This document shows, piece by piece, positions 17,115-51,119 of a stretch of DNA of 64,000 nt (position 1 is the stretch's first letter; every line of letters begins with the position of its first letter). Both the position numbers and the translations under genes were made by a program. Source of the DNA: a virus; the IMG/VR virus record IMGVR_UViG_3300014501_000003, positions 1 to 64,000 of that record; one strand, given 5' to 3'. Under the pieces are notes generated by a model, which ran no database searches, was not told where the DNA came from, and was given only the letters and a program-made list of their open reading frames with translations.

Positions 17115-17144
17115 ACGCTACACGCTCCCCCGGCGCTATGTCAA
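17115..17144 (-). promoter_or_regulatory. Sigma-70/SigA-type promoter giving a leaderless transcript
   Basis: On the minus strand: TTGACA (17144..17139), an 18-nt spacer, then TAGCGT (17120..17115), then 6 nt to ATG 17108. No SD. Confidence 0.5.
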
Positions 17145-21489: not shown

Positions 21490-22077
21490 TCAGCCGTGCA
21501 GGATCAGGGCGACGATGGTGGAGATAACGGCTGCCAGGAGGATGACGCTCACGCCCGCTATGCCGATCATCGACGCGGTGATCTCTGCGCCGCGCCGCTG
21601 GGCGCCGATGTTCTGATTCGAGCGGTCCTGGAGGGTACGCAAGTTCTCCGGCCCCACGTCGATACGGCTGCGCAGGTCGCTCAGATCCTTGGTCAACTGA
21701 TCGGTGGTGACCTTGGCCGCCGTGAGGGCCGTAGCCGTTTCGTCCTTCACCGTCCCAAGGGACTTGTCCAGTTCGGTGCGCGTGGCCACCTCGCCCTTGA
21801 GGAGGTCTAGTGCCTCGCGGAAATCCTTGTTCTCCACGAACCGCAGCGCCACGGCATCTTCAAACAGGATCTGGGCCGTGTTGCGTTGATCCTGAGCCGT
21901 GACCAACTCGCCCCGAAGGGCGGTCAGGTTTTCGGTGAGCCGCGTAACCTGCGTCGCCGACTCCTCGTCGAGGCGCCGGATCTCGCCTTGCCACAGCTCC
22001 TTCTGTGCCGCCAGCTCGCGGTCGTGCATCTCCCGGAGCTGGTCGGGCGTCCAGCTAACTCCTCCGTTTCCGGACAT
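21490..22077 (-). CDS. Coiled-coil protein with a C-terminal TM anchor, 195 aa
   Basis: Track ORF. Long heptad region, C-terminus [23 protein letters not shown]. Confidence 0.75.
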
Positions 22078-23383
22078 CGGACCTCCTTGTCAGCGCCGCA
22101 GACGGGGAACGGCGAACAGCAGAACGATCACGGCCACCAAGATCAGCAACAGCGGCGAGAGCGCCACGGTTCCCCGCGAACGAGCCGATCTCGGTCAGGG
22201 CTGGGCTACCGACGGCGCTTGAGCCTTCACCGGAGACGACGCCCCAGTTACCGGAGTCGTTGTGCGACTGGTACCACCATATCCCGGCGACGTAGGGCAG
22301 GCCCGTGAACTCCCCGTAGGCTTCCTTGATGTCCTGCACACGCACGGTTTCAGTCGGGGCCGACGTGTTGGGGCCGTTCAGTTCGATCCCGTACTCGGTC
22401 AGGTAGTAGGTCGCGTGGGCGAAGCCCTCGGACACCGCATAGGCGTGCTGTTCTTCGAGGCCCCTTGGCCCTTCCCAGCCGTTGCGGCTTTCATGGGCGA
22501 AGCCGTATGGGTGGTCGGAGAAGGCATCGACGAGCGTCGTCAGCTTGGGCTCGGCCGTCACGGCTTCTTTCGTCCAGGTGTTGCTCCCGCCGTCGAAGAT
22601 CAGCGTGACGTGCTCGGCCGCTGCGGCTTCGTGGAGCGACACGTACATTTCCGCGTACTTCGCCCCGTTCTGAGAGCCGCCCTTGAGGTACATCTCGTTG
22701 CCGACTTCCAGCAGCGTGTAGCCGTCGCCCGCGAGCGTCTTTACTTCCGCCAGGGCCGAGGATGTCCACGAGGCGAGGTTCACCCCGGATAGCGGCGAGC
22801 CATCGCTGGTGTTGCCGACTATCGCTGTGGACGTGGCCGGGTTCCCACCATCGGCAGCGATCCACGTTGCCTGCCCCGTGCCTTCGATCCGGCCCGAGTG
22901 GATGCCGGCGGCCTCTAGCACTTTCGCGGTGCCCGGACCCCAGCCGACGAAGTCGTTGGAGCCGATGATGACGGGCCCGGCGGTGCCCGTCGATCCAGTG
23001 GTGCCTGTGGTCCCGGTCGTGCCCGTCGAGCCCGTCGATCCAGTCGTGCCTGTGCTGCCTGTGGAGCCTGTCGTGCCCGTTGGTCCTGTGGAGGTGGTTG
23101 AGCCCGTCGTGCCGCCCGCGCCCGTTGGACCCGTCGCGCCCGTGACACCGCGAGGCCCAGTCGCCCCCGTAGCGCCAACCGGCCCAGTCGCGCCAGTAGC
23201 GCCAACCGGACCCGTGGGACCCGTCGGCCCCGCCGTTCCTCCGCCCGGTGCGCAGGTGACATGCACTTCGGTCGTGCCTGTAACGGTGCAGCCTTCGAGG
23301 GTGATCGTGACGGATGCGGCCTGCGCGCTCGATGCGAACAGGCCCAATGCTAGGAGTGCGATGAGGATTGAGACGCTGCGCAT
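22055..23383 (-). CDS. Secreted collagen-like repeat protein with a clan GH-A glycoside hydrolase domain, 442 aa
   Basis: AAGGAGG precedes ATG 23383. Signal peptide ends SSAQA-A. About 30 GXY triplets. LLEVGNEMY and YLTEYG resemble the GH-A acid/base and nucleophile motifs. Confidence 0.85.
22973..23245 (-). repeat. Collagen-like GXY coding repeat
   Basis: 9-nt periodic GGN-NCN-NNN runs encode [16 protein letters not shown]...[10 protein letters not shown]. Confidence 0.9.
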
Positions 23384-23429: not shown

Positions 23430-23891
23430 TCACGGGTGCCGCGCGTTGAACGCGGCCACCCAATCCGGCGATGCCGTGAACCACCCGACGGTGGTCCCGG
23501 GCACCTGCGCCGCCCACAGGCGAACGGGGCGGCCGGGCAGCGTGAACATGAGGAAGCAATGGTGGATCGCGGGCGTGTCGAGCACGCGCACCGAAACGTA
23601 CTGGCCGACCCCGGGCTCGCCGTAGGTCTCAAGCTCCTCCGTGTCGAGCGCTTCCTGGTGGCCGAGCACGCCAGCGCGCCAGAGGACCGCGGAGACCGCG
23701 CTCGAGCACGCGTAGCCCGGCTCTGAGGGTTCGAGCGGCGAGACCTTCTGCGGCGGGTTCGTCGGCGGGAGTTCCCTCCCGTCGAGCGGTCCGACCCCGT
23801 AGCCCCCGTAGTAGCGGTAGGGCAGGTGCAGCCCTGAGAGGTGTTCGGCCCAGCTTTCCGCCCACTCGGCCTGCTGGAGGGTCATGGTCAT
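23430..23891 (-). CDS. NlpC/P60- or CHAP-like peptidase candidate, 153 aa
   Basis: ATG 23891 sits in an ATGA overlap. [13 protein letters not shown] (Cys) and AIHHCFLMF (His). Confidence 0.6.
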
Positions 23892-24820
23892 GCGAGGTCC
23901 CTTCTCAGCTTGGCGATCTGCGCGTCCTCGACGCGTCCGTGCGCGCTCACTCGGTTGCCGGCGGCCTTCCAGCCCCGGCATTTCGGGCCAGCGCGGTGCG
24001 CCTTCAGGGCCGGATAGCAGTCGTGGCTCGCCAGTTTCGTGCGGAGGTGGACGATCTGCCGGCGCAGCGCGGCCAGCTCCCGCTCGTGGCCGGCAAGCTG
24101 AGCCTCAAGCTGAGCGTGAGTCGGCGCGGGCGCCGGCCGTTCCACCACCTGCAGCAGCTCCCCCTCGCGCACCCGCCGGTCATACAGCCCCTGGAGGAAC
24201 GAGCCCCCGGCGTAGGAGTAGCGGCGGATGTAGATTGCGGCCGAGTACCACGCGTGAGCGCGCACGAGCGAGGCCAGCGTGCAGCAGATGTCCCCGGGGC
24301 CGACGTTCCAGGCCAGGTCCCCGAGGGCGTCGACCTGCTTGTGGGAGAGGTTGACGCCGAGGCGCCGCACCGGGGCGAGGTACTGCGTGTCCATCAGGTA
24401 GCGGAGGTTCGCGAGCGCCTGGGCTTTCGTGATGCAGCGCCCGCCGAAGTTGCCCGACCAGTCGGTTTCCCCATAGCCCCGTGTCCAGACGTGGCCGTAG
24501 GGATCCCAATACGGGCAGTAGACCCGTTCGGGCACGTTCTCGAAGCCGCCGGTGAGTTCGGCGCCGAAGGTATCGAGTTGGATCTGCCCGCCGATCAGCG
24601 TCAACGGCGGCGTGCCGGCGACGTAGCGGCTCATATCCTTGCCGCGCGCGCCCTCCGGGACGATCGCCGAGCATGGGGGGCCTGCTTGCTGGCAGGCCGC
24701 CGGAGCGAGGTTTAGCGTGCCCGCCGGCCGAGGAGGAGACGGCGCGCTGGGAGGAGACGCGCCACAGCCGACGAGCACGATGGATGCCGCGAGGGCGGCG
24801 AAGATCGACAGGCGCTTCAT
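23888..24820 (-). CDS. Lipoprotein GH24-type lysozyme with a coiled-coil tail, 310 aa
   Basis: Lipobox LVGC. GGFENVPERVYCPYWDPYGHVWTRGYGET fits the E...D...T pattern of phage lysozymes. Confidence 0.8.
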   Translation of the reverse strand: MKRLSIFAALAASIVLVGCGASPPSAPSPPRPAGTLNLAPAACQQAGPPCSAIVPEGARGKDMSRYVAGTPPLTLIGGQIQLDTFGAELTGGFENVPERVYCPYWDPYGHVWTRGYGETDWSGNFGGRCITKAQALANLRYLMDTQYLAPVRRLGVNLSHKQVDALGDLAWNVGPGDICCTLASLVRAHAWYSAAIYIRRYSYAGGSFLQGLYDRRVREGELLQVVERPAPAPTHAQLEAQLAGHERELAALRRQIVHLRTKLASHDCYPALKAHRAGPKCRGWKAAGNRVSAHGRVEDAQIAKLRRDLA

Positions 24821-25005
24821 GCTCGTGCCCCCTTGCGAATCGTGCCGTACTCGTCACGCTCATATGGGCGATCGTCGCGGGAGTGCGTCGCGGCGCGCAC
24901 GGTCAGCGGGCGGCGCTTCTGCCAGCCCTGCTCATCGCGCGAAGCCTGCGTGGCCGACTGCCGATGGCGCACCCGTGGCACGCCGTAGTTCGCTGGCTTC
25001 GGCAT
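24817..25005 (-). CDS. Small basic protein, 62 aa
   Basis: ATG 25005 is preceded by GAGAGGGGGG. Its stop overlaps the lysozyme ATG. Confidence 0.5.
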   Translation of the reverse strand: MPKPANYGVPRVRHRQSATQASRDEQGWQKRRPLTVRAATHSRDDRPYERDEYGTIRKGARA

Positions 25006-25027
25006 CGTGACCCCCCTCTCGGCGGTA

Positions 25028-25061
25028 GTCGCCCCCGCTCCATCCAGAGAACGGGGGCGAC
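25028..25061 (-). terminator. Strong GC hairpin (terminator or processing site)
   Basis: Perfect 10-bp stem GTCGCCCCCG / CGGGGGCGAC with a 14-nt loop, 19 nt after the stop at 25080. No U-tract. Confidence 0.45.
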
Positions 25062-25079
25062 CGCCAGCTCTACTCAGTG

Positions 25080-25652
25080 CTACGCGGTCGGGACCGCCAC
25101 TCCGGTGAAGACCGTCCAGACGCCTGCCTGTTCGCCGGTCGGCGCGCCGCCCACGGCGTCCGCGTCGAAGTACCACAGCGGGACCGCGGGGACTTCTGCC
25201 ACGGCGGGGACAGCCGGGACTTCGGCGGCGCCGGTTTCCGGGTCGGCCGGGACCGCCGGCACTTCAGCGACGGCCGGGACGGCGGGGACCTCGAAGCCCG
25301 AGGCCGTCCAGCCTTCTGTCGAGCCTTCGACGTCGTGGACGTAGACCGGCTTGTCGGGCGCAGCCGAGGGCTTGCCCGGGTCCTCGCCTTTCACGGCCGT
25401 GTCGGCTGCGTCGACGTCCAGGGCCAGCGCGTCGACCGCGTCCTTGATCGGGCCGAGGTCAGCGGCGGTGATCGTGCCGCCCGCGGCCTCCTTGGCGATC
25501 AGATCGGCGATCGTCTGGTTCGTGTCGGAGGCGAAGGTGTTGAAAGCGGTGCTGAGGGTGGTGACGGCCTCTTGGAGTTCCGCCACAGTCGCTTCGGTCA
25601 TCGTCTGTCTCTTTTCTAGCGCCGCGAAGCGCTTCTCGTGGTCAAAGGCCAT
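25080..25652 (-). CDS. Hypothetical protein with EVPAVPAV repeats, 190 aa
   Basis: Track ORF. Coiled-coil N-terminus and a repeated AEVPAVPAV motif. Confidence 0.75.
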   Translation of the reverse strand: MAFDHEKRFAALEKRQTMTEATVAELQEAVTTLSTAFNTFASDTNQTIADLIAKEAAGGTITAADLGPIKDAVDALALDVDAADTAVKGEDPGKPSAAPDKPVYVHDVEGSTEGWTASGFEVPAVPAVAEVPAVPADPETGAAEVPAVPAVAEVPAVPLWYFDADAVGGAPTGEQAGVWTVFTGVAVPTA

Positions 25653-25688
25653 CGGTGTTCAGGCTATCAGTGGTGCGAAGCTAAGGCT

Positions 25689-25985
25689 ATGGATCAGGTT
25701 GAGCTTCACGTCTGCTTCCACTGTGGCGGGGAGTTGGTCTACCCGCTCGACTGGTCGGAGGAGGGTCGGAGCTGGCGCATCACGCTTCGCTGCCCCGAGT
25801 GCGAGTCCGAACGCGAAGGCGTGTTTACGGCGCGGGAGGTGGAACGCTTCGATGACGAGCTGGACCGCGGCTCGCATGCGCTGCGCAGCGACCTGGACCG
25901 GATGACGCGCGTGAACATGAGCGAGGAGATCGAGCGCTTCGAGGAGGCGCTGGACGCGGGCTGGATCACGCCCGAGGACTTCTGA
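25689..25985 (+). CDS. Zinc-ribbon protein, 98 aa
   Basis: ATG 25689 follows AAGG. CFHCGG ... CPEC. Confidence 0.65.
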   Translation: MDQVELHVCFHCGGELVYPLDWSEEGRSWRITLRCPECESEREGVFTAREVERFDDELDRGSHALRSDLDRMTRVNMSEEIERFEEALDAGWITPEDF

Positions 25986-26009
25986 GGCGGTTGCCCGCAC
26001 AAGGAAATG

Positions 26010-26038
26010 TTGACAAGTTGACGGGGCGGGTGTAGTGT
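26010..26038 (+). promoter_or_regulatory. Near-consensus promoter facing the plus-strand island
   Basis: TTGACA (26010..26015), a 17-nt spacer, then TAGTGT (26033..26038). A second TTGACG overlaps at 26018. Confidence 0.55.
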
Positions 26039-26111
26039 CGCCAGAGAAGACGAAAAGCGCCCGACGGACAGAACGGGAACCGCCGGGCGCAGGCCACCAC
26101 GAGATAGGGTC

Positions 26112-26336
26112 GTGATGACGGACACCAAGGTATCAGCAGCCGGAACGTACATCGAGCGGTTGCGCACGCTCGATGACGATGAGCTGAGCGAGGAGGCAGG
26201 CTACCTCGCCGCTGCCGTGCAAGACCCGCCGCAGCACACCGACGCCGCGCTGAGTCCCGAGCGGCGCGCGATGCTTGTGGAGGTCGAGCGCGCGTGGCGT
26301 GAGCGCGGTGCCCATCACAGGGCCTGGGGACACTAA
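26112..26336 (+). CDS. Hypothetical acidic protein, 74 aa
   Basis: Track ORF. GTG 26112 and ATG 26115 are both possible starts. Confidence 0.6.
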   Translation: MMTDTKVSAAGTYIERLRTLDDDELSEEAGYLAAAVQDPPQHTDAALSPERRAMLVEVERAWRERGAHHRAWGH

Positions 26337-26535
26337 TGGCCCGCTGTGCAGGGACTTCCCGAGTTGCGCACATATCCACAGGCCCTACTACTACTGAGCC
26401 TTCACAGAGAATGGGTGGAGCGGTGCCGGTAGGGAGCGCAGAGAGAGCGGGGGAGCCCTCCGCACAGGTTCATCACGGCCGGAGTTTGCGGGATCAGCAC
26501 TGGCGCGCGGCGCTGCGCGGCGCTAGCCTCGCCCG

Positions 26536-26850
26536 ATGGGAGGGCAGTCCTACGCAAGCCTCGGCCCCGAGCAGAAAGCCCGCGCCATCGCCCGCGGCAA
26601 GCTCAACCTCGCGGTCTACCACGGGCGGGTCAAGCGCCAGCCGTGCGAAGCGAGTACGGAGAGCGGCGAAGTGTGCGGAGCCCAGCCCGCCGAAGCCCAC
26701 CATGAGGACTACTCAAAGCCGCTGGAGGTCGAGTGGCTATGCCCGACACACCACAGAGAGCGTGAGCGCGTCAAGCGTGCCACGATCCAACGAGAGGAGT
26801 TAGGGAGATGCGCAAGCACATCAGCTATGCCAGCGTCACAGCGACCGTAG
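26536..26850 (+). CDS. Small HNH-motif protein, 104 aa
   Basis: AEAHHEDYSKPLEVEWLCPTHHRE is a short HNH signature. Confidence 0.75.
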   Translation: MGGQSYASLGPEQKARAIARGKLNLAVYHGRVKRQPCEASTESGEVCGAQPAEAHHEDYSKPLEVEWLCPTHHRERERVKRATIQREELGRCASTSAMPASQRP

Positions 26851-27296
26851 CGCTGGTGTTCGCAATGACCGGCACAGGCATCGCCGCGAGCCGCTATTTC
26901 ATCACGTCCACGTCGCAGATCAAGCCGAGCGTGGTCAGGCAGCTTGAGGCGAGCCACATCGTCGCCGCAACCAAGACAGTCGTCGGCACGCCGGGGTCGC
27001 AGGGACCGGCGGGGGCCAACGGCGCACAGGGGCCGCCGGGAAGCAACGCAACCCTCGGCGAACCCATCGAAGTCAAGGTCGAAGACACGGGGGAAATAGG
27101 CGCGTATGCCGAAGCGCTCTGTCCCGTGGGAGACGTTTTCCTGTTCGGCAAGGGCCACGTGAAGGGCACGCCCGCCTTGGAACAGGAAGCGAAGGTGGAC
27201 ACGAAAGGCCGCGTGGGCTGGTTCGTGAGTGCGGTCGGCACCACCGGGACGTTCACGGTGTCGGCGACCGCTTACTGCGTGAAGGGGGCATCGTGA
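26808..27296 (+). CDS. Membrane/secreted protein with a short collagen-like stretch, 162 aa
   Basis: GAGAGGAG precedes the ATG. TM segment TATVALVFAMTG, then GTPGSQGPAGANGAQGPPG. Confidence 0.75.
   Translation: MRKHISYASVTATVALVFAMTGTGIAASRYFITSTSQIKPSVVRQLEASHIVAATKTVVGTPGSQGPAGANGAQGPPGSNATLGEPIEVKVEDTGEIGAYAEALCPVGDVFLFGKGHVKGTPALEQEAKVDTKGRVGWFVSAVGTTGTFTVSATAYCVKGAS
26985..27047 (+). repeat. Seven GXY collagen-like triplets
   Basis: Encodes GTPGSQGPAGANGAQGPPGSN. Confidence 0.8.
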
Positions 27297-27520
27297 CGAG
27301 TCGGGACCAAAGCGACACGAAGGGCGACCACCAGATCGCGCTCTGCGACGGAAGCGACACGCGGAAACGCGGGCTGCTGCGCGCTGATCGCGGACCGATC
27401 AAGCTCGTGCCAGCAGCAGCCCGCGAGGTCTGGACAAAGCGTCCCTCGCTGACGCCCAAGCAAGCTCAGGCCGTCATCGCCGAAGCCAAGGCGCGAATCG
27501 CGGCGAGGCGCAAGCGATGA
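27293..27520 (+). CDS. Hypothetical basic protein, 75 aa
   Basis: Track ORF with GTGA coupling. Confidence 0.55.
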   Translation: MTSRDQSDTKGDHQIALCDGSDTRKRGLLRADRGPIKLVPAAAREVWTKRPSLTPKQAQAVIAEAKARIAARRKR

Positions 27521-27573
27521 CGCAACCGCAGGAAAGCGACAGAACTTGGAACACCAACAAGGGAGAGGGAACA

Positions 27574-28203
27574 ATGACGAAGGTATGGACACCACTACTG
27601 ATCCTCGCGGCCATGCTGCTGAGCGCAGCACCGGCGGCGGCGGAAACGGCGCAAGAAGTCAGCGAACATAGCTGCACCTATGTCACGTATGTAGGCGTCC
27701 GCTACTACACCTGCCCTGAAGGCGAAATCTCGCTGGCGCAGGCAGAGCTGGACCTCGCACGGCTGACGCAATACGCGCCAGGGCTGACCAGCACGCTCGA
27801 AGCGGGGCTCGGCGCGAAGACGACGGCTTGGTGGTTCAACTATCACACCGGGCTCTTTATGATCCGTATGCCCGAATACGCGAGCGAAGCCACGGGAAAC
27901 AAGCTCGATGAAGAAATCAACTCACGATTCGCGGGATGGATTCCAGAAGGGCTGATGCAGTGGTCCTCGAACAACTGGGATGACGCGCGAATCGCGGCGA
28001 ACAAAGCCACGCTGGAAACGGGCTACAACCAGAAGCTCACAAAATACGTGGCTGAAGGGCTCGTCAAAATCGAAGTGGACCTGAAAGACAACGGGCTCAG
28101 GTGGGTTCCTGAATTTGCCAAGCTCACCACCGCGCAGGAGAGCTACATCTACACGGCGTGTGCGGTCACGGGCTATCTCACAAATGGCTTCTGTCGCATC
28201 TAG
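27574..28203 (+). CDS. Secreted Cys-containing protein, 209 aa
   Basis: GGGAGAGGG precedes ATG 27574. Signal peptide ends AAPAAA-E. Locally lower GC. Confidence 0.75.
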   Translation: MTKVWTPLLILAAMLLSAAPAAAETAQEVSEHSCTYVTYVGVRYYTCPEGEISLAQAELDLARLTQYAPGLTSTLEAGLGAKTTAWWFNYHTGLFMIRMPEYASEATGNKLDEEINSRFAGWIPEGLMQWSSNNWDDARIAANKATLETGYNQKLTKYVAEGLVKIEVDLKDNGLRWVPEFAKLTTAQESYIYTACAVTGYLTNGFCRI

Positions 28204-28210
28204 GGACGCT

Positions 28211-28249
28211 GAGCAGCCGCCGGGGCCTGTAGGTGTCCCGGCGGCGCTC
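28211..28249 (+). terminator. GC hairpin after the secreted-protein gene
   Basis: GCCGCCGGG / CCCGGCGGC 9-bp stem with a 12-nt loop, 8 nt after the stop. No U-tract. Confidence 0.4.
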
Positions 28250-28425
28250 AGGAAAGCTGCGGCGAAACGCGCGTACCGGCAGGCCCACCGGGCGGCTTAC
28301 AACACCAACAAACGCCGGGTCTACCGCATAGACCATCCGAACTGGGCGACAAGGACATTCCCCGGATGACTGACCTCAGCCCCAGACGAGCAGCGGTGGC
28401 AATCCACGACCCGAAGGACTGACCA

Positions 28426-29799
28426 ATGACCAAGCTCGCCACCCTCACCGCCGCCGTTTTCCTCACGCTCTCAGCCTCAGCTCTGGCGAGTCCGGTCAAG
28501 AGCTATGTCCTACACCACCCGAAGCACGAGAACTGCCGGGTCCACTATGTGCGGAAGGTCGAGAAGGTCCGACTCGGCAAGCATCACCGCGGGCGCCGGG
28601 TGCGCGAGACGGTCTGCGTGTATGTCGCGCCGAAGCCCGCCGTCGTGAAAGCGCCGGCCGCTCCCGCGATCATCGCCCCGAGCATCACCGCCCCGCCGAG
28701 CGCTGCCGCCCCGAAGCCGTCGTTCACGCTCCACGCCAAGCTCGACCCGAGCTTCACGCAGAACGCCGGGAACCCGCTGGCCGTGACCTACGACTACTCG
28801 GCCTCCGCCAACAAGCTCACCGATGGCGTGAGCCAAGGCGAACCGAGCCTCCCGTCCGGCGTGCTCGAGCTGTACTCCGAAGGGCTCCTCGCCTGCTCGA
28901 TGGACGTGGGCGGAGCCACGGGGGAAGGCCAGTGCCCGGTCACCTACGGGTCCTACGGGACGCACACGGTCATCGTGGAGTACCTCTCCGGCGAAGCCTC
29001 CGGGACCACGGGCGATGAAGCCGAGCGCATCGAGCCGCCGGACGTGACGGTGCAGAAGGTCTGGACCGCGGGCGCGGCGAGCATGACGATCACGAAGGAC
29101 ACCGCGAGCGTAAAGCTGAGCGCGCCGAGCTTCGACGGGGCGACGAGCGTGGGCCTGACAGACAACCTCGGCGACACCTGCGTGGCCGCCGTCTCGGGCA
29201 CACAGGCCACCTGCTCGATGACCGTCTCGGGCGAACCCTCGGGACTCACCGTCAGCTACCCGGGCGGGACCACAACCCGCCACACCGAAGCGTTCGCTCC
29301 CGGTGGGGAACGCGAAGTGACCGAAGAATGGGCACCACAGACCGTCCCCGTCACACCCTCCGTCACCGCCTATCGGGCGACTGTGGCGTGGTCGAGCTGG
29401 ACAATCGGCAATAGCGGATCGAGCAAGGACCACGGCACCGGGAACCCACCCGACCCGATCCATGTCGAAGCGGGCGAACTACTGACCCTCGACTCGCAGG
29501 CCATCGGCGACTACCCCGGCGATGACGAAAACAGCCCCCTCGGCTACCTCGCCTACACCGTCGAAGGCCCCGGCGCAGTCACCACCCGCAACGAGCTCTA
29601 CAACCCCGGCTCGGAAGAAACCTTCATCACGGGCAGCGAAGATTGCTCGGCCGCGCGCAACTACCTCGGCTCGGCTACGGCGTTCTGCGGGCTGACGTTC
29701 TCAGTGCCGGGCACGTACATCGTCCGCTTGTCCTTCACGAGCGAAGACGAAAACTACTTTGACCGGAGCGGGCCGAGTGCGACGGTGGACGTGGGCTAG
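28426..29799 (+). CDS. Secreted Ig-like/beta-sandwich repeat protein, 457 aa
   Basis: Track ORF. Signal peptide ends SASALA-S, followed by a Pro/Ala linker and then T/S/G-rich beta-type segments. Confidence 0.8.
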   Translation: MTKLATLTAAVFLTLSASALASPVKSYVLHHPKHENCRVHYVRKVEKVRLGKHHRGRRVRETVCVYVAPKPAVVKAPAAPAIIAPSITAPPSAAAPKPSFTLHAKLDPSFTQNAGNPLAVTYDYSASANKLTDGVSQGEPSLPSGVLELYSEGLLACSMDVGGATGEGQCPVTYGSYGTHTVIVEYLSGEASGTTGDEAERIEPPDVTVQKVWTAGAASMTITKDTASVKLSAPSFDGATSVGLTDNLGDTCVAAVSGTQATCSMTVSGEPSGLTVSYPGGTTTRHTEAFAPGGEREVTEEWAPQTVPVTPSVTAYRATVAWSSWTIGNSGSSKDHGTGNPPDPIHVEAGELLTLDSQAIGDYPGDDENSPLGYLAYTVEGPGAVTTRNELYNPGSEETFITGSEDCSAARNYLGSATAFCGLTFSVPGTYIVRLSFTSEDENYFDRSGPSATVDVG

Positions 29800-30620
29800 A
29801 GTTCGAGGTAGTTCGAGTAAAGAAATTCCACCGAGCCGACGGACGCTTCAAGCTTCCACTTCTTTCCAGCGGGGCACGGGAATTCCCACCCACCCCACCC
29901 GCTCGCAACGACGTTCTTTGTATTGAGCAGAACACCGCCGACGTATAGGTTGAGGACCGTCGTTTCGGCGTGAACCTGGGCGCTGAGCATCACAAAGGTC
30001 GGGCGACTCGCGCTCGGTTCGTATTCCGTGGGCGAGCTGCGTACCACCCGTGCTCCGTAGGCATGGCCGATCCCGCTTGCCATCGTGCCAGCGCCTGGGC
30101 CAGCGACCGTCGCCACGTTTTCAATGTCCCCCGAGACGACCGACACCGCTTTCGCCGGCACCAGCACATAAGCCAGCACCATGCTCGACGCGGGCACCGC
30201 ACCCGCACCTTTTTTGTTCGCAAGCGTCGCCCCGGATTCCGCTGTGCCGGTGATGACTGCGACGGAGAAGGTCTGCGTGCTTCCGGCGTACGCCTTGTCC
30301 GTAACCTGCGCGATGATCGTGTCGATTCGCGGGTTTGATTCCGAGGAGGCCGCGATTGCCAGGGCCGTCGAGGATTCCACCCGGCAGTAGTAGCCCGACT
30401 GCGTGGCCGAGCTCGTGCCTGGGACCCATGCCTCCCCAGTGCCGACGAGGACCTGCATCCCGGAGCCTGCCGTGACCTGCATGTCGGTCGAGCCAACGAG
30501 GCCCCCGGCGATCGAGGCGATGGATGCGCCGCGCTGGAGCAGGGTGCCGAACGCGCGGCGTAGGACCACGGCGCCGTAGGTGGATTCTTGCTCGAAGCCG
30601 GGAGGGGATTCGACGGCCAT
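29796..30620 (-). CDS. Minor tail / fibre-associated protein, 274 aa
   Basis: Track ORF. G/S/T/A-rich beta composition, last gene of the tail module. Confidence 0.75.
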   Translation of the reverse strand: MAVESPPGFEQESTYGAVVLRRAFGTLLQRGASIASIAGGLVGSTDMQVTAGSGMQVLVGTGEAWVPGTSSATQSGYYCRVESSTALAIAASSESNPRIDTIIAQVTDKAYAGSTQTFSVAVITGTAESGATLANKKGAGAVPASSMVLAYVLVPAKAVSVVSGDIENVATVAGPGAGTMASGIGHAYGARVVRSSPTEYEPSASRPTFVMLSAQVHAETTVLNLYVGGVLLNTKNVVASGWGGWEFPCPAGKKWKLEASVGSVEFLYSNYLEL

Positions 30621-31702: not shown

Positions 31703-33529
31703 CTATGCGGGCTCGAAGATGATGTAGCCGACTTCTGAGGTGTCCGTCACGACTCCGGTTTCGATCACGAATTCTTTTGCCGCCGTGATGGTAGTCGTGT
31801 AGCCCGAGATGACGGTGACGGTGCCGAGTTTGATGCAAAAGACAATGATCTTCGAGCTGGCCGTAACCGAAGTATTGGCGACGGCCACTTTGCCCGCCGT
31901 TAGTTTCGCCGTCCCCATCTTGGCGTTCGAGCCTTCCTTGACGCGAAAGCCTGAGCCGGCTTTGTTCGCGGCGATGTTGCCCGCCACATCCATCGTATAG
32001 GTCGCCGCTTCGTTGGCCCCGATCTTGACGTTGCCGACGTGGCGCATTTCAACGCTCGTGCCTACGCTGCGCAGGCTGAGGTTCGTCGTAGCCTTTTTGA
32101 GGTCTTCGACATCGACCGCTACGGACGTCGTCAGGGTTCCCGATGCCCCTATCGCGTCTTCCATCAAGAGGCCGCGATAAGTGCTGATCGTCCAACCCGC
32201 CCCGGTGGTGAACGTGAGGCCAGAGCGCACGGTGCTCACTTGCCCGCTGCCTGTGCCTGACCCGCCGAGGAGCACGGGTTTAGAGCCGACTGCTATCGGG
32301 TGCCAGCCGGTCGACGTCGTTTCTTCAGCGGGTTCCAATTCCGGTCGTGAGTTCAGAGCTATCGCAGGGGTCATCGCAAAGCTTCCAAGTGCGACCAATC
32401 TCACGGCGCTCACGAAAAGCTGCGTGCTGCCTTCCGCGGATGGTGCCCCTTCGTACTTCACTTCGCCTGTGATGAACTTCATTCGGAGGAGCGCGCCCGC
32501 GACCATCGTCATGTTCAACGGTGCCCTGAGAACGTTGGTGGTGCTCAGGCCCGTGCGTTCTTCGGTGTAGAGTTCAATCGCCGGTCCAGAGGTAGGATTG
32601 AATTCCTTACGTCCCGAGATCGACTGTGCGCCCGCGAGCTTGACGACCGTCGTGAGCGCCAACTTTGAGTCTTCGATTCCAGCCGCCGCTTTTACCATCG
32701 CGTTCGTGAGCGAGGCCGCTTTGACCTTGAACGCGGCGCCCGAGAGTTCGAGCCCTTCCCCGGCGGTGTAGCTTTTGATTTCCCCGAGTTTGGTCTGGAC
32801 TTCAGCGGACAGCTTGAGTTTGGTGACGGCTTCGTTTTCGATCTTGATCGTCGTCACGGCGGCGGCGGCCAGCAGCGCCGTAGTGATACCTTCGGCTTTG
32901 ACCTTGAATTCCGAGCCCGAGAGTTCGAGCCCTGTCCCTGCGGTGTAGCTGCCGCCACCACCAGCCACCCATTCCAATCCGCTACCGCTCGCCGTGTAGC
33001 CGAGGACTTTGCCCGCAGCACCTACGCCTTCGACTTTGAGGTAGGGCCGCGTCAGTTCGCCTTCTTTGAGCTTCGCCGCCGCGATCGTTGCCGATGCGAT
33101 CTTTTCCCCGGTGATCGAGACGTTCGCATACTTGCTCGTGGTGATGGTGCCTTCGGCGATGTAGGCGCCGGTGACTCCGAGTGCTTCGAGTTCGACGTTG
33201 ACCCCGGTGATCGCCAGCGGTTTGCTCGCGGTCGTCACTCCGCCTCCGCCGCCTCCGCCGCCCCCCGTGACCTGGACCCATTTGCCTTCGTGGTAGACCG
33301 CGATCCCCCAGCCCGAGAGGCCGGTGCTTTCCCCGCTCGGCCCGTGGGCGATGTTCCCGAGGATCGCGATCGGAACGCCCCGGGCCGCTTCACCGCCGCT
33401 ACCGGGGGAGCCCTTCGGGTATTCATAGATGTATTCCGTGCCGCCCGAGGCGTTCGCGGTCGAGAGGTTCCTGAGCCCCGCGAGCCAGTTCTGGGGTTTC
33501 TGAGCGACCGGCCTTGCGTAGTTCGGCAT
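31703..33529 (-). CDS. Tail fibre / minor tail protein, 608 aa
   Basis: Poly-Gly run plus a repeated module YTAG(T/E)GLELSG(S/A)(E/A)FKVKA. Confidence 0.85.
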   Translation of the reverse strand: MPNYARPVAQKPQNWLAGLRNLSTANASGGTEYIYEYPKGSPGSGGEAARGVPIAILGNIAHGPSGESTGLSGWGIAVYHEGKWVQVTGGGGGGGGGVTTASKPLAITGVNVELEALGVTGAYIAEGTITTSKYANVSITGEKIASATIAAAKLKEGELTRPYLKVEGVGAAGKVLGYTASGSGLEWVAGGGGSYTAGTGLELSGSEFKVKAEGITTALLAAAAVTTIKIENEAVTKLKLSAEVQTKLGEIKSYTAGEGLELSGAAFKVKAASLTNAMVKAAAGIEDSKLALTTVVKLAGAQSISGRKEFNPTSGPAIELYTEERTGLSTTNVLRAPLNMTMVAGALLRMKFITGEVKYEGAPSAEGSTQLFVSAVRLVALGSFAMTPAIALNSRPELEPAEETTSTGWHPIAVGSKPVLLGGSGTGSGQVSTVRSGLTFTTGAGWTISTYRGLLMEDAIGASGTLTTSVAVDVEDLKKATTNLSLRSVGTSVEMRHVGNVKIGANEAATYTMDVAGNIAANKAGSGFRVKEGSNAKMGTAKLTAGKVAVANTSVTASSKIIVFCIKLGTVTVISGYTTTITAAKEFVIETGVVTDTSEVGYIIFEPA

Positions 33530-33539: not shown

Positions 33540-34922
33540 CTAGATCATCGGCGCGATGGCCTGAGTGAAGGGGGGAGCCGCCATCGCCAGCTTCACCACG
33601 GCATCGCCCTGGTCGAGCACTTCGACGTTGTACCCGGTGATCCGCCACTCCTGATCCATGCCAGCCGGGAAGCGCGGGTCGTACACTTCACCCCGGTCGT
33701 TCAAGGCGGGGATCAGCACCTGCACGTCTTCGCCCTCGATGAACGAGCCGAGCGGCAGGTTCGGGTCATTGATCCCGAGCGTGATCGACGGCGTGACCGG
33801 CGCATAGCTATAGAGCGCCAGGTCCGAGAGTCCGGTCTGCTGCAGGATTTGCATGATGTTCTGCGACTGAATGTTCGCCCGCGAGAAGATCCGCTCCCAG
33901 ACCGCGTAGCCCTGTTCTTGTGCGAACGTGTTTTCCGAGACGCTGATCGCCCCGGTCCCGCCGAGCTCATACACCCGGTTGGCGGTTTCTGAGCCCTGCT
34001 CCGGGAACGAGTAGCTGCGCGCGGTCGTCACGTCGATGAGCAGGCTGTTCTGTTCGACCGTGCGCCCCCGCCGCGGGTAGCTCAAGTTGATCGTCCCGAC
34101 CGGCGGCGAGGGGGAGCCTGCCGAGTAGGCGATGTCGACGGCGTAGTCGAACCCGACGCCGAGCCCGAGCTGTGAGAGCTGGTTGACGATCGTGTCCACC
34201 ATCTGCATCGACGGGTATGGGTAGCTCACCGCCACCCAGTCCGTCGACGAGGCCACCGGCAGAGATGGGGTCGCGCCGTTCAACATCACCGTCATCCCGC
34301 CGAGCGGGTTGCCGTGGCCGATGCTCAGCCCGCCCGCGTAGCCCAGCACGTCCTCGATGATCTGGCAGGCGATCAGGCTCGCGTCGAACGGCGTGGCGGT
34401 CCAGAGCGCCATCTTTTCGGATTCGCTCGGGTTGCCCGTGTGACCCGCGATCCCGCTGTAAGGAGGCGATGAGTAGTCGGTCGCCTGGACGCGGTGCTGG
34501 AAGTAGGCCCACGTCTCAGAGCAGGTGATTTCAAGGGTGCCCGTGGTGCTCGAGCCGGAGCTTTCCGTCTTCGGTTCGCGCGGCAGCACCACGCCGCCCC
34601 ACAGGGCTGCGCCTCCGTAGTCGGCGACGATGAACGAGCGGTTCGGGATTGTGTTCTGTAGCGGGAACGTCTTCTGCACCCGTGGGTCTGAAAGGTCCAG
34701 CGTGCCTTTGAGGGTGCCCGGGCTGTTGAGCTGTTTGCCCCAGGTGACGGTCCGCAAGGGGAGCTGGCCCTGGAACGCGCCGGTGAGGAAGTCGAAGGCG
34801 TAGTAGGAGAACGGCTCGACCGGCGCCTTGATGGGCGTGGGGACGACTTCCGGTGGCGTTTCCGGTGGTTCTTCGTACCCGATCAGGAACCCGGCGTACG
34901 TTTCTGGGCCGAAGACCGGCAT
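33540..34922 (-). CDS. Minor tail protein (Tal/baseplate-hub-like), 460 aa
   Basis: Track ORF. Call rests on size and position in the tail module. Confidence 0.8.
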   Translation of the reverse strand: MPVFGPETYAGFLIGYEEPPETPPEVVPTPIKAPVEPFSYYAFDFLTGAFQGQLPLRTVTWGKQLNSPGTLKGTLDLSDPRVQKTFPLQNTIPNRSFIVADYGGAALWGGVVLPREPKTESSGSSTTGTLEITCSETWAYFQHRVQATDYSSPPYSGIAGHTGNPSESEKMALWTATPFDASLIACQIIEDVLGYAGGLSIGHGNPLGGMTVMLNGATPSLPVASSTDWVAVSYPYPSMQMVDTIVNQLSQLGLGVGFDYAVDIAYSAGSPSPPVGTINLSYPRRGRTVEQNSLLIDVTTARSYSFPEQGSETANRVYELGGTGAISVSENTFAQEQGYAVWERIFSRANIQSQNIMQILQQTGLSDLALYSYAPVTPSITLGINDPNLPLGSFIEGEDVQVLIPALNDRGEVYDPRFPAGMDQEWRITGYNVEVLDQGDAVVKLAMAAPPFTQAIAPMI

Positions 34923-37310: not shown

Positions 37311-40300
37311 CTAGACGGGCAGCTGGTGTGTCAACGCCCAGGTCAGCTCGGTCGCGTTTGCTTGTGCGTTGTTCATATCGAGGCCGTACTGATTGACCAC
37401 CAGGCCCGAGCCGGCGTATTGAGTCGTCGCCTTCTCCTTGGTGACGCTCACTTCTCTTTCCTTCGCCGCCTCACGCTGAGCTGCGGTGTCTTCGATCTGG
37501 GTGAGGTTCTGCTGGGCCTGCGCGAGCTGTGCCGCACCTTCACCCTTCGCTCTGGCGAGGTTCTGTTCAGCCTGTTTGATCGCGTTGCTCCACGATTCGG
37601 TGGTGCGGGTCAGTTCGTTGGACGCGGCGTTGATAGCGGCTTCCGCAGCCGGGTTGACTTCCGCTTTCAGGTGGTGTTCCGCCCCCGCCACCAGCATGCC
37701 GGCTTCGCCTTCTGCCTGGTGGAGCTTGGCAGCCGCCGCCTCTTCCTTTTGCTTGCCCCCACCCGTGGCGGCGAGCACCTTCAGCTCGGCGTTCCCGATG
37801 AGCTGATCCGCATGGGATTGCGCGCGGTCCACTTCTTCCTGCGCGATCTGGATCTTCTGGTCCTGCGCGACCGTTACTGCATCGACATGCGCCAGCGCCG
37901 ATGCCTCCTGCGCGTCCGCCATCGCCTTGTCCTGGTCGACGGTCTGTTCGTCCAAGGCTGTGACCTGCTGCCAGTTGACGGCGAGCTGCGCGTCTTCACG
38001 CTGAGCCTGCGCGATCTGCTGGTCGTAGCTCGCCTTCATTTCGTCGAGCTGCACTTCCTCCTTCTGAGCGATCAGGTTCAGCCCATACAAACCCCGCTCA
38101 CCAAGGATCGAGACTTCGATGTTCGTCTGGTCCTTGATCCCCGTGACGACTTCGTTAGACGCGGCAGCCATCACCTTCGACTGATCTTCGATGCTCTGGG
38201 TCAGCGCGGAGAACGAGTCCGACATCGACTGCGTGGCGTCAGCGATAGCTTGCCCTGCGGCTTTCATCGCATCGGTCTGCTGCGCTTGGCTGGCCTTGAC
38301 GACGTTTAGCTGGTCGGTGGCGGTGTGTTCGAGCTGGGTGGTCTGATCTTTCTGCTCGGTCGCCTGGACTTTCAACTGTTCCCCGAGCTTCGTCTCCTCG
38401 GTTGAAACCATCTCTGAGGCGAGGGTGGCGAGGGCCAGCTTGTGGGCGGCGACGAGTTTCGAGGCGAGCTCCTCAAGCTTCTTCTGGTGCGTCGCGTTCA
38501 GCGCGTTGACAAGCGCCTGCTCCTGCTTGCCGGCGACCGACTGGGATGCGCTCTTGGTGAGCGCCGCCGTGAGCTGGGTCATCGGCTTGCCGCCGGTGGA
38601 ACCCGCTTCCGCATCGTGTAGGGCCATTTCGGGGATCGTCGGCCCCGCGCCGAAGCGTACGCCGTGGCGGGTGACGGGTTTGCCGGTCTGGGCCGTGGTG
38701 GAGACGCCGAGGGAGCGCTCGATCGCGGCGGGCGTCGAGGACTGGATGTTGGCTTCGTATTTCTTGACGAGTCCTTCGGCCTTTTCGCCGAGTTTCACCA
38801 GAGCTTCTGCTGCCTTTTTCGCAGCCGCTTCGGCCTTAGTCGCCGCCGTTTTAGCGGCCGATTCCGCTTTGCTCTGCGCTTTTTCCTTGGCTTTTTCTTC
38901 TTTGGAGACAGCCTTGGCGTTGGAGGTTTCGTTCATCAGGCCCGAGATGCCCGAGGACCCGCTGCCCGTGCCCGCGCTGGCCTTGCCGCCGCCGGAGTGT
39001 GCGTAGGCTTCGGCGGCCGCCTGTTCGCGTTGGTGCAGATGAGCGGTGCCCTCTTCCGGCGTTCCGTACCCCGGTTCGCCCGGCCGGGAACCTGCCGGAA
39101 CCTCAAACTCTTTCTCGATGAAGCGAGCTGCTTCGGCGGGGTTCTTGGCGCTCTTGAGCTGCGCGATCTGAGACGGGGAGAGGCGCCTCAGTACCTCTTC
39201 CGATTGCCCCGCAACGCTCAACCCCGCCACCTGTTCCGCCCCCGCCGAACCCAAGCCGGATTGCTGATACAGGCCACCGCCCTTATCGCTCGGAGTGTCG
39301 CCCGACTCCAGCTGCGCGTTGCCGGCGAATCCTGCTGCGGCGGCGGGCGAAAAGCCCTTGCTCTCCCAGAACTTGAGGATTTCACTCTCGACCCCGACGC
39401 TCCCGCCGATCCCCATCGCTCGGTTCTGCGCTTTCTGGAGGTTGGGTGAGAGTGGTTCGTTGAGGTTGCCTTCCTTGCCTGCCGTGCCACCAGCGCCCGA
39501 GAGTTCCTTGATCTTGCCGAGATGGACGAGCCCGAGCGTGAGTTTTTCGACAACGCTCATGGCTTTGTTCAGGGCGGCGATGACCGCGTTGGCCATTTCC
39601 TGCGCCGCGATTTCGAGGCCCTTCATCACGGTTTTCCAGTGCTGCTCAAGCTCCACGGCCGCAACGCCGACGCCGACAAGCACAAGCCCGACTCCGGTCG
39701 CCCCGAGCGCCGCATCGACTCCCGCCGCCGTCGTGTCGGCGCTTGCGACGATTCCAGTGCCAGCCGCCTTGATCTCACCCGCCGTCATTCCGTAGGAGGA
39801 GGCCAGCGCGACGTTGTTCGCCTCCATCTCCTCGTTCGCGGCGAGCTGTGCCGCAGCCGTGGTCTGCGAGGTAGAGCCGATCAGCCCCATTTTCGTCAGG
39901 ATGCTCGGGACGGTCTGCGCAATCGACGAGCCGAACGTGGTTAGACCTTTCACCATTTCCCGCGTGCCGGTGACGAACTGTGTCGCCTTCTGGTAGGCGA
40001 ACACCGACACGGCTGCCCCGAGCACTGAGGTGATGACGCCGCCGAGGATCATGCAGGCTTCCTTGTGCTTGGTTAGCCAGGTGATGCCTTCGGCCAGCGT
40101 CTTCGCGACGGCTGTGAGCTTCGGGATCAGGACCAGCCCGAGATCCCCGCCCAACGTCTCGACTGCGGCCTTCGCGGTGTCGAACTCGCCGCGCAGGGTC
40201 TTGGCCTGGATTGCCGCGGCCTGCTGAGCCGTCCCCGTTTTCGTCGCCGCGTCTGTGGCCTTCTGATATGCGGGCACTCCCGACTGGATGACGGAGCCCA

Positions 40301-42441: not shown

Positions 42442-43095
42442 TTAGGTCAGGCCAGCGCCCGGAAACGGCCAGATGGCCTGCTTCCGGCGATTGCAGGGCA
42501 CGCACGCGGGACGAAGGTTCGCGTGACAGTGCGTGCCGCCGTGCTTCAAGGGCTTGACGTGATCGAACTCCGTGGCCTCGGCGCCGCACATCCAACAGCG
42601 ACCGCCGTAGAAGTCCCAGCGCGCCGCGAGGCCAACGGCCGTGACCGTGCCGCGTGGCATCTGCTTCTTGACCGCTCGGCGGCGATACTGGATCGCCTTG
42701 CGCGCCATTGGATTGCGTTTGCGTTCGCGGCGATCCTTCTCGCGCCACTTCTCGGGATTCGCCGCGCGGTCAGCGCGCGCCCATGCTTCCTTCGCCGCCT
42801 TGCGCTTTGCGTTCTGCTCAGGCGCCCGGGCACGGCCAAGGGCACGACTCGCCTCCACGTCACGCCAGTAGGCGGCCTTGACGCGTGCTTTGACGAGTCC
42901 GAGATTGGCCGCGCGATAGGCGCGCGCGGCGGCCTTGATCTGCTCCCGTTTCGCTTCGTAGCGCGCGCGGTTGTAGTCGCTAAAGCAGGCACGACACCAG
43001 TGGTGCCGACCGTCCGCACTCCGCTTGCTGCGGTTGAATGCTTCGAGTGGCTTGCGTTTGCCACACCGCCGACACCGCTTGCTACCGTCCGCCAT
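42442..43095 (-). CDS. HNH endonuclease, 217 aa, between the major tail and chaperone genes
   Basis: EFDHVKPLKHGGTHCHANLRPACVPCNRRK, with N-terminal CRRC...CRAC. Confidence 0.9.
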   Translation of the reverse strand: MADGSKRCRRCGKRKPLEAFNRSKRSADGRHHWCRACFSDYNRARYEAKREQIKAAARAYRAANLGLVKARVKAAYWRDVEASRALGRARAPEQNAKRKAAKEAWARADRAANPEKWREKDRRERKRNPMARKAIQYRRRAVKKQMPRGTVTAVGLAARWDFYGGRCWMCGAEATEFDHVKPLKHGGTHCHANLRPACVPCNRRKQAIWPFPGAGLT

Positions 43096-50991: not shown

Positions 50992-51119
50992 TCCAATATC
51001 CAGCGGATGCCGCGTCGGTGGCCATAGCCGGTTGGCATTGTGAGCCAGACGACATGCGTCGCGCCCGTCCAGTTGGCCTGCGAGCCTGCGATTGGCGTGT
51101 CGAGCCGCGTGCTGTTCAC
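50988..51119 (-). CDS. Small protein, 43 aa (below the track cutoff)
   Basis: GTGA overlaps at both ends. Translates VNSTRLDTPIAGSQANWTGATHVVWLTMPTGYGHRRGIRWILE. Confidence 0.45.
   Translation of the reverse strand: MNSTRLDTPIAGSQANWTGATHVVWLTMPTGYGHRRGIRWILE

Follow-up and report, generated by a model that had tools for sequence, protein, structure and literature searches.

In phage lambda the lom gene is a neighbour of the tail genes and bor of the lysis genes, and such additions are grouped under the HK97-type moron concept of Hendrix and colleagues. In this work we analysed an island of seven plus-strand open reading frames (ORFs; I1 to I7) at positions 25689-29799 of a 64,000-nucleotide (nt) stretch of viral DNA, positions 1 to 64,000 of the IMG/VR record IMGVR_UViG_3300014501_000003; this whole stretch is called the window, and coordinates refer to it unless a related locus is named. 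Like the lambdoid morons, the island consists of extra genes within or at the end of a late region, with a predicted promoter of its own and with envelope or exported products; I4 to I6 are absent from close relatives and I6 deviates in GC content. Unlike them, it comprises a six-gene operon on the opposite strand whose promoter, leader and last gene are kept across deeply diverged relatives, it has no terminator after the last gene, its host is a monoderm actinobacterium, and it has no sequence similarity to them. In our view the island is probably a moron-like accessory operon, transcribed on its own, whose products remodel the surface of the cell, perhaps for exclusion; the soil phage that carries it is probably a temperate siphovirus of Solirubrobacteraceae. 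The category of moron or accessory cassette is already well known; what is new here is a set of uncharacterised proteins in an unstudied host clade, with a function that we infer.

Llp of T5 and Cor of T1 and related coliphages are receptor-blocking exclusion lipoproteins, and llp adjoins the pb5 gene in T5 (PMC9586334). As in these systems, a gene for an exported protein is linked in the island to tail and receptor-binding genes, and the islands of two related lineages hold small lipoproteins. The window island differs from them in that it contains no lipoprotein, in that I7 is a 457-amino-acid (aa) array of immunoglobulin (Ig)-like domains rather than a ~60-aa lipoprotein and is also found on non-phage elements, and in that no sequence match to them was found with PHROGs or PADLOC. 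A monoderm actinobacterial host is not expected to possess a TonB-dependent receptor of the FhuA type in an outer membrane. A further known group is that of the superinfection-exclusion lipoproteins of the Ltp type made by Gram-positive temperate phages such as TP-J34 (PMC11480721). Like Ltp, the exported island proteins are phage proteins predicted to leave the cell by the Sec pathway and to act on the external side of the membrane in a Gram-positive host; unlike Ltp, a lipoprotein with helix-turn-helix (HTH) repeat domains, I4, I6 and I7 have no lipobox and no similarity to it, and are encoded in the late region. Ltp is encoded in the lysogeny module. CwpV of Clostridioides difficile is a chromosomally encoded, phase-variable protein with CWB2 wall-binding repeats that provides phage resistance. 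I7 shares its design, a conserved N-terminal module presumed to attach to the envelope followed by a variable C-terminal repeat region, while being unrelated to it in sequence and carried by mobile elements. Finally, Gordonia phage CarolAnn is said to carry a prophage-expressed defence, and the known actinobacteriophage examples are reportedly mostly cytoplasmic or membrane proteins encoded near the immunity region; the island has in common with them that it consists of accessory genes of temperate actinobacterial phages, and no homology to them was detected. Our literature search found nothing specific on a studied phage system of Solirubrobacterales, which are abundant soil Actinomycetota.

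The seven ORFs reported in the initial annotation of the window are all present and break a series of leftward late genes. GC content at third codon positions (GC3) is of coding type in six of them (0.75-0.87) and 0.72 in I6, compared with 0.75 in the 608-aa tail-fibre gene. The location between tail and lysis genes is likewise confirmed: to the right the island abuts the last gene of the tail module, which encodes a 274-aa protein (29796-30620, minus strand; phrog_3398 virion structural protein, 1e-13) and is followed by the tail fibre, minor tail protein and tape measure genes, and to the left it is bordered by a gene for a 190-aa protein and then by a Phage_lysozyme gene. I7 and the 274-aa gene are convergent and their stop codons overlap as CTAG (29796-29799). 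Three exported proteins had been announced, and a hydropathy scan combined with inspection of the sequences found a hydrophobic N-terminus followed by an AXA-type site in I4, I6 and I7 only, among the seven proteins. All three have the n-h-c organisation of a Sec signal with small residues at -3 and -1, including the signal peptides proposed for I6 (AAPAAA-E) and I7 (SASALA-S), and the signal region is also found in homologues. Searches of the seven proteins against Pfam, NCBIfam, PHROGs and PADLOC gave nothing informative for I2, I5, I6 and I7, and the island has no blastn match among 50,697 GenBank phages.

We compared the locus in five phage or prophage lineages, represented by the window, L003/L004/L023, L024, L012/L025 and L015. 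In all five, a homologue of I7 converges with a homologue of the 274-aa gene; the two stop codons overlap by 4 nt in four lineages (window 29796-29799, L003 11437-11440, L024 9215-9218, L015 10957-10960), which therefore have no intergenic space for terminators, and the two genes are separated by 10 nt in L012. A lysozyme-type endolysin gene is present a few kb to the left of I7 in four of the lineages, and none was identified in L024. Identity to the window ranges from 28 to 78% for the 274-aa protein, from 31 to 85% for the minor tail protein and from 26 to 64% for the tape measure, and I7 is 48-69% identical over the aligned part. The survey of this locus in related prophages, which the initial annotation had suggested, thus found the promoter and leader kept in L003 and L015, I7 kept throughout, and I4-I6 absent: the I4-I5-I6 group occurs in the window only, the HNH gene in the window and L003 only, and I7 in all five lineages. 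Within I7 the two N-terminal modules are conserved and the C-terminus is variable. We considered that this variation might follow the C-terminus of the 274-aa protein, as for a blocker of a cognate receptor, and rejected the idea, the similarity patterns being opposite in two lineages: in L003, I7 aligns over its full length and the 274-aa protein over residues 1-176 only, and the reverse is found in L012. The islands of relatives encode other exported or membrane proteins, namely small lipoproteins in L024 and L012 and a transmembrane protein in L024. The L012 island opens with its small lipoprotein (L012 9677-9904), which differs from that of L024 and shares 53% identity with a protein (L007 8738-9229) that weakly matches DUF3761 and is encoded two genes upstream of the I7 homologue of an integrase-bearing element, L007; a second exported protein may thus travel with I7 between element kinds. 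Taken together, these comparisons suggest that the locus is a conserved, separately transcribed slot that ends in a gene of the I7 family and whose other genes vary and mostly encode exported or membrane proteins.

The island promoter, TTGACA-17-TAGTGT on the plus strand at 26010-26038, is present as described, and is by its sequence of the actinobacterial housekeeping-sigma type. The pattern TTGACA-N16-18-TANNNT has three matches in the window for 0.14 expected; the other two are on the minus strand of the early region at 17115 and 17766, so that the statement that only two such promoters exist has to be corrected for the overlooked site at 17766. One of the early-region promoters sits immediately upstream of the ATG of its own gene. 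At a relaxed threshold the island promoter is the sole promoter-like plus-strand site in 25500-29800, and a stricter TATAAT-based sigma-70 scan gives no scoring site at the island. The two hexamers are kept, with diverged flanks, at the homologous site of L003 (TTGACAAGTTG..GAGTAGCGT; TTGACA..TAGCGT) and in L015 (TTGACAAG..GTGTAGTGT; TTGACA..TAGTGT), and promoter and leader are conserved although the adjacent 274-aa protein is just 78% (L003) and 28% (L015) identical. A site on the strand opposite to the late genes, of an enriched pattern and kept in two other lineages, would give the island the promoter of its own that is expected of a moron. It had been described as preceding the whole island; this is true of the six genes I2 to I7 and does not apply to the zinc-ribbon gene I1, which lies upstream of the promoter and hence outside the unit that it drives. 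L024 has a different promoter, TTGACA-N18-TAACCT, which ends 6 nt before the first island gene, that of the small lipoprotein, and this short distance suggests a leaderless or near-leaderless transcript. We also looked for separate promoters for I7 and for the lysis genes, and dropped this idea: the relaxed scan found no promoter-like plus-strand site in the 222-base pair (bp) gap before I7 (28204-28425) and none on the minus strand in 25500-26200. An operator common to the island and early promoters was dropped as well, there being no shared 13-mer at up to one mismatch; the absence of a shared operator would be compatible with expression in lysogens, and is no proof of it.

The leader contains a conserved hairpin (GCGCCCG..CGGGCGC, 26057-26090). 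Its outer 7-bp stem, GCGCCCG/CGGGCGC, is invariant in the window, L003 and L015, while the inner 3-4 bp vary yet pair (CGG/CCG, GCGA/TCGC and CGAA/TTCG), and in all three lineages the hairpin is followed on its 3' side by AGGCCACC(C)ACGA and then by the I2 homologue. Folding is stronger on the minus strand (-30.4 kcal/mol, z -3.27) than on the plus strand (z -1.8). The minus-strand site is the one flagged by a terminator scan; it continues into TTTTCGTCTTCTC and so has the form expected of an intrinsic terminator acting on leftward transcripts, and a T-rich tail follows the minus-strand hairpin in each of the three lineages. A search of Rfam with 25000-30500, leader included, gave no match. 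Because there is no terminator between I7 and the convergent tail gene, and because the minus-strand hairpin has a T-rich tail, we suspect that late transcripts continue into the island in antisense orientation and end at the leader hairpin; as a speculation, island and late transcription would then be mutually antagonistic.

The central part of the island is a recent insertion. I4 (26808-27296) is a 162-aa exported or anchored protein with a signal peptide or anchor (..VALVFAMTGTGIA-A), the motif YFITSTSQIKPSV, seven G-X-Y triplets and a C-terminal domain of ~80 aa that contains a Cys pair; it scores 20.2 bits against Pfam Collagen (PF01391), below the cutoff of 27.2. More than 319 relatives share the N-terminal motif and the collagen repeats, many of them on megabase contigs and two of them named as Solirubrobacteraceae, with the common layout of a signal or anchor, YLITSTSQIKPSVL, collagen triplets and a variable C-terminus, and most of the longer ones carry PF01391. 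I5 (27293-27520) is a very basic 75-aa protein (isoelectric point, pI, 11.2) whose start overlaps the I4 stop and which has no homologue in any of the loci that we fetched. I6 (27574-28203) is a 209-aa near-orphan exported protein (signal peptide MTKVWTPLLILAAMLLSAAPAAA-E) with four conserved Cys; its start is placed at 27574 and not at 27517 because its sole clear homologue begins there and because a Shine-Dalgarno sequence, AAGGGAGAGGG, precedes this position. Besides its own entry, it has one homologue (P0040, 48% identity) among 5.8 billion clusters, and a full HMMER scan of 1.84 billion representatives gave just two further, marginal matches (E ~5e-4); a profile search of PDB sequences gave none, and the AlphaFold2 model is unusable (predicted local distance difference test, pLDDT, 51). 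The I6 homologue is encoded directly 3' of an I4 homologue on short contigs from other metagenomes (L027-L029), where I5 is absent; the pair matches that of the window at 76% and 68% nucleotide identity, and similarity to the I6 homologue resumes at the ribosome-binding site AAGGGAGAGGG.

I4, I5 and I6 have no counterpart in the related phages, and nucleotide similarity to L003 spans 26010-26768, from the promoter to the HNH domain, and resumes within I7 (28709-29799). The lower GC content ascribed to parts of the island is real and limited to I6, which is the sole gene of deviant nucleotide composition (58% for 66% in the window and 65-68% in the other island genes; minimum 0.557 at 27800-28199). 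Directly after the I6 stop lies a strong plus-strand hairpin devoid of a U-tract (28209-28251; -38 kcal/mol, z -3.16, equalled by 0 of 200 shuffles), which probably marks the 3' end of the inserted cassette. An 18-codon ORF (MTDLSP..., 28365-28422) ends 3 nt before I7, and its first 18 nt (28365-28382) are identical to the beginning of the next ORF downstream of the I6 homologue in L027; this single short match weakly points to a remnant of a downstream gene brought in with the cassette. The absence of I4-I6 from relatives, the presence of the pair elsewhere, the low GC of I6, the hairpin and the truncation of the HNH gene show that I4-I6 is a recent insertion in this phage and that the island is a mosaic. 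The ancestral unit comprises the promoter, the leader, the small acidic I2, the HNH gene, sporadic in relatives, and the 457-aa I7.

I7 (28426-29799) is composed of a signal peptide (MTKLATLTAAVFLTLSASALA-S), a basic His/Lys/Arg mini-domain (residues 22-70, pI 10.5), a Pro/Ala linker (residues 71-99) and three acidic beta-sandwich regions (pI 4.1-4.4), with two Cys in the mini-domain and in each of the three beta-sandwich regions. A search of 5.8 billion clusters yields 38 relatives, every one of them unnamed and none with a precomputed Pfam domain. The N-terminal hydrophobic signal region is present in 17 of 17 aligned relatives, in which it is followed by a basic mini-domain, likewise conserved, that contains a Cys pair (KQYVLKHPKHEHCRAHYV..VRETVCVYVAPK), a Pro/Ala/Thr linker, a conserved beta-sandwich (~100-204) and a variable C-terminal part; conserved Cys are thus kept in I7 as in I6. 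Residues ~100-204 have the sequence pattern of Pfam Big_3_5 (PF16640), yet the window I7 gives no match to this family, and 3 of the 17 relatives give weak, sub-threshold matches (best E 0.0013). No enzymatic, tail, binding or anchoring family or domain was detected with Pfam, PHROGs, NCBIfam or a PDB profile search, the last of which gave no match at all. Structure prediction, recommended in the initial annotation, produced an all-beta Ig-like model (AlphaFold2, pLDDT 69 overall and >90 through much of the C-terminal domain). Compared as a whole with PDB and BFVD by Foldseek, the model finds just generic arrays of Ig or fibronectin type III domains (TM-score 0.15-0.25), among them the S-layer protein SbsB, a membrane-anchored protein of C. 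diphtheriae (3lso), the Ig-like domains of PrgB and phage Ig-like proteins; since these matches are generic and their scores low, no function can be read from the fold. The layout of charges suggests that I7 could hold on to the anionic Gram-positive wall by its basic part and project outward.

Homologues of I7 are also encoded on small integrase-bearing elements (L001/L019, L007, L011, L013/L026, L014 and L016). All of these except L007, which has a different integrase, share a tyrosine integrase (63-90% identity), and most have an HTH_17 gene; in two further loci (L018 and L020) an integrase lies within 10 kb of the I7 homologue. The small elements have no match to the tail or lysis proteins of this phage. 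The initial annotation had named homology to ordinary tail components as an observation that would speak against its interpretation; because homologues of I7 are found in integrase elements that lack any match to phage tail and lysis proteins, and given its signal peptide and its position on the opposite strand, I7 is by these comparisons not an ordinary tail component. The I7 family is found only on mobile elements of these two kinds, phages and integrative elements, of Solirubrobacterales type: ten of the 12 genome loci with an I7 relative come from metagenome-assembled genomes (MAGs) of Solirubrobacteraceae or Solirubrobacterales, and the other two from one Acidimicrobiaceae MAG and one unclassified Actinomycetota MAG. 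As a separate observation, the integrative elements form a family in Solirubrobacterales MAGs with the I7-family gene near one end of each; individual cargo includes Replic_Relax (L001) and AAA_25 with HicAB (L026).

An opposite-strand unit with a host-type promoter, three exported products, cargo shared with other elements and a recent insertion are the observations from which we deduce independent transcription and a change of the cell surface. We propose that host RNA polymerase would start at the 26010-26038 promoter and transcribe rightward, against the late genes, through the hairpin leader, I2, the selfish HNH gene and the inserted I4-I5-I6 cassette, and that I7 would be reached by read-through of the hairpin after I6 or else from a start site that we did not recognise. 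I4, I6 and I7 would be exported by the Sec pathway. I7 would be held on the anionic Gram-positive envelope by its basic mini-domain, the Pro/Ala linker projecting the acidic Ig-like array, and I4, a short phage-borne member of a family of collagen-like anchored proteins also encoded on Solirubrobacteraceae chromosomes, would work with its conserved partner I6. The outcome would be a remodelled surface of the cell that carries the element. The likeliest benefit would be exclusion of competing phages and mobile elements, or receptor masking, with adhesion as an alternative; exclusion or masking is the most economical because both phages and integrative elements carry I7, which in phages lies beside the tail genes.

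Several observations weigh against this proposal. I7 is present in five of five lineages and is conserved like tail proteins (48-69% compared with 31-85%), which would fit a core function too, and three genes of the island (I2, the HNH gene I3 and I5) encode non-exported proteins, which tells against a moron or lysogenic-conversion interpretation. None of the seven proteins matches a known exclusion or defence family in PADLOC or PHROGs, and the wall anchoring of I7 is deduced from charge alone. With regard to transcription, the hairpin after I6 could halt it before I7, for which the 222-bp gap offers no promoter, and there is no convincing terminator hairpin at the junction of I7 with the 274-aa gene and none after I7. 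The genome was assembled as a free circle, not integrated, in its source sample, and its recombinase is just 193 aa. Lysogenic, early lytic and constitutive timing would all fit the sequence. The moron or lysogenic-conversion cassette of the initial annotation is therefore retained in part: a separate unit with exported cargo and a recently inserted I4-I6 is what we find, but I7, being present in all five lineages, lacks the sporadic distribution of a moron.

The early-region promoters share the consensus of the island promoter, so that, as far as timing is concerned, expression early in the lytic cycle ('lytic conversion') would be equally possible. The island could then be an early lytic unit like T5 llp, by which an infected cell and its debris stop adsorbing sibling or competing phages, and which would be silent or irrelevant in lysogens. 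The promoter type shared with two early-region promoters, the position of I7 beside tail and receptor-binding genes in every relative, as llp beside pb5 in T5 (PMC9586334), the small lipoproteins in this island of relatives and the recovery of the genome as a free circle would all agree with such a role; we nevertheless regard it as doubtful, as I7 is also cargo of small integrative elements with no match to phage tail and lysis proteins, in which any benefit must arise in the integrated state, and as the variation of its C-terminus does not track the 274-aa protein (L003 compared with L012). The carriage of I7 by different kinds of element could also reflect cargo that serves the host, namely adhesins or matrix proteins that attach the lysogen to soil particles, biofilm or plant surfaces and play no part in conflicts between phages. 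Its best Foldseek matches are S-layer, surface-anchored and adhesin Ig arrays (SbsB, 3lso, PrgB), and the I4 family is large and collagen-like with members on megabase, presumably chromosomal, contigs; but the fold matches are generic (TM-score 0.15-0.25), no recognisable binding or anchoring domain was found, and the fixed site beside the tail genes in five lineages is left unexplained, so that we find this explanation quite unlikely.

That fixed site would be accounted for if I7 were a component of the virion or of lysis, such as a tail decoration or an accessory that degrades the envelope, its position reflecting a core late function. I7 does abut the last tail gene near the lysis genes in five lineages, and Ig-like domains are common on virions. 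Its location on the opposite strand behind a host-type promoter, its conserved Sec signal peptide, the two Cys in each of its four structured regions, the lack of any enzymatic or tail family match and its homologues in integrative elements with no match to phage tail and lysis proteins make this very improbable. We thus favour the accessory operon that remodels the cell surface. A bolder version of it, which we put forward tentatively and think unlikely as a whole, is that I7 founds a new family of envelope-tethered Ig-like proteins, cargo of siphoviruses and integrative elements alike, which acts as a general surface-exclusion shield; in the phages a conserved promoter and leader module would couple it to the late operon, and the leader hairpin would double as a terminator of late transcripts in antisense orientation, each of the two transcription units thereby turning off the other.

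Whatever its benefit, the locus offers a concrete case, open to experiment, of the proteins that mobile elements of Solirubrobacterales deliver to the cell surface, and with I7 it introduces a family of 38 uncharacterised proteins, none with a Pfam domain, whose genes move from phages to integrative elements or the reverse. Expression work in Solirubrobacterales could make use of the host-type promoter and leader conserved here. Should the exclusion role be shown, I7 would add a Gram-positive, Ig-like type of surface exclusion protein that phages and integrative elements have in common.

The window has 66% GC and nearly all of its genes are on the minus strand. The late genes are ordered from prohead protease and capsid through the tape measure protein (37311-41354), minor tail protein (33540-34922), tail fibre (31703-33529) and 274-aa virion protein (29796-30620) to the plus-strand island, beyond which lie the genes for the 190-aa protein (25080-25652) and the Phage_lysozyme endolysin (23888-24820), more leftward genes and then the early genes. 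The island had been proposed to be expressed from an integrated prophage; its source contig is instead a free circle of ~71.4 kb in the sample. ENA contig k141_5064082 (71,507 bp; L005, L008 and L010) has the identical sequence, relative to which the window is circularly permuted: two independent anchor genes map a window coordinate w to contig positions 79614-w and 8248-w, and as the offset of 71,366 equals 71,507 minus 141, the k-mer overlap of the assembler, the contig is a closed circle and the genome of ~71.4 kb is complete. The ~7.4 kb of it that lie outside the window include the gene for the portal protein and several ORFs without annotation, which reach 565 aa in length. A tyrosine recombinase catalytic domain (Phage_integrase, 5515-6096, 193 aa, 1.7e-40) and an HTH protein of the Cro/CI type (HTH_3) are encoded in the window. 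L012, which lies within a 153.8-kb contig of a Solirubrobacteraceae MAG, is 100% identical over 16.9 kb to L025, a 53.6-kb IMG/VR viral contig, and this match suggests that relatives of the phage integrate. With the recombinase, the Cro/CI-type protein and integrated relatives, the phage is probably a temperate siphovirus of Solirubrobacteraceae, the host lineage being taken from the MAG origin of the relatives of the island proteins.

I1 (25689-25985) is an acidic 98-aa zinc-ribbon protein with two CxxC pairs, weak zinc-ribbon Pfam matches and a GC3 of 0.87; it is 73% identical to the product of a chromosomal Solirubrobacteraceae gene beside tatC, and 56-58% identical to proteins of two further MAGs. 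A functional link between I1 and I7, which co-occur within less than 10 kb in three MAGs, was rejected because the I1 homologue is chromosomal, beside tatC, and outside the integrative element. The position of I1 is occupied by a zinc-finger gene in L003 and by a sigma-70 family gene in L015; the latter (L015 8584-9333, plus strand; region 2, 2.5e-12; region 4, 1.2e-12) lies directly upstream of the conserved island promoter. I2 (26115-26336), an acidic cytoplasmic protein of 73 aa, is the first gene product of the promoter-driven unit, and its homologues hold the same first position in L003 (42% identity) and L015, with conservation of the ATG and of the preceding TCG(T/G)GATGAC; it has no family match in Pfam, NCBIfam, PHROGs or PADLOC. 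I3 (26536-26850) encodes a predicted short HNH endonuclease (phrog_2340 'endonuclease', 1e-12; phrog_11793, 4e-11) in which the HNH motif AHHEDYSKPLEVEWLCPTHH is present, but which has no Pfam or NCBIfam match; the public gene call skips this ORF and calls one on the minus strand instead. It is 64% identical to the 138-aa HNH protein of L003 over residues 9-78 only, and by this comparison it is truncated, its C-terminus being replaced by the downstream insertion. Neither tblastn nor the ORF lists revealed an HNH counterpart in L015, L024 or L012.

Other features of the window were noted in passing. The structural genes include, on the side of the capsid genes that faces the tail genes, a second gene for an HNH endonuclease (42442-43095, minus strand; PF01844, 9e-8). 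The structural block also contains three ORFs for family-2 glycosyltransferases and one for an FkbM-type methyltransferase (48649-49239, 49145-49855, 50305-51171 and 51116-51817, all on the minus strand), which suggests that virion proteins are glycosylated. The tail fibre (31703-33529, minus strand) has a C-terminal K1-lyase_C (PF24146) / phrog_24355 module, and its conservation in L003 is limited to the first ~88 residues, suggesting that the receptor-binding part has been swapped. Downstream of the lysis genes and outside the island, a minus-strand gene (22055-23383) encodes a 442-aa protein that combines a Sec signal peptide with an extended collagen-like G-X-Y stretch and a ~270-aa C-terminal domain and is 46% identical to the product of an L024 gene; ARAGORN places an 87-nt tRNA-Glu(CTC) at 22104-22190 (minus strand), within the 3' part of this ORF, which is probably a false positive. 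Finally, lipoprotein-type signal peptides open the minus-strand endolysin gene of the window (23888-24820, PF00959; ..LVGC) and minus-strand genes of L012 (7739-8692; ..IVAGC) and L015 (7631-8626; ..VSAGC). The L012 lysin gene is a 30%-identical homologue of the window endolysin and the L015 counterpart has no match to it; these lipoprotein-type starts suggest that the lysin may be exported and lipid-anchored.

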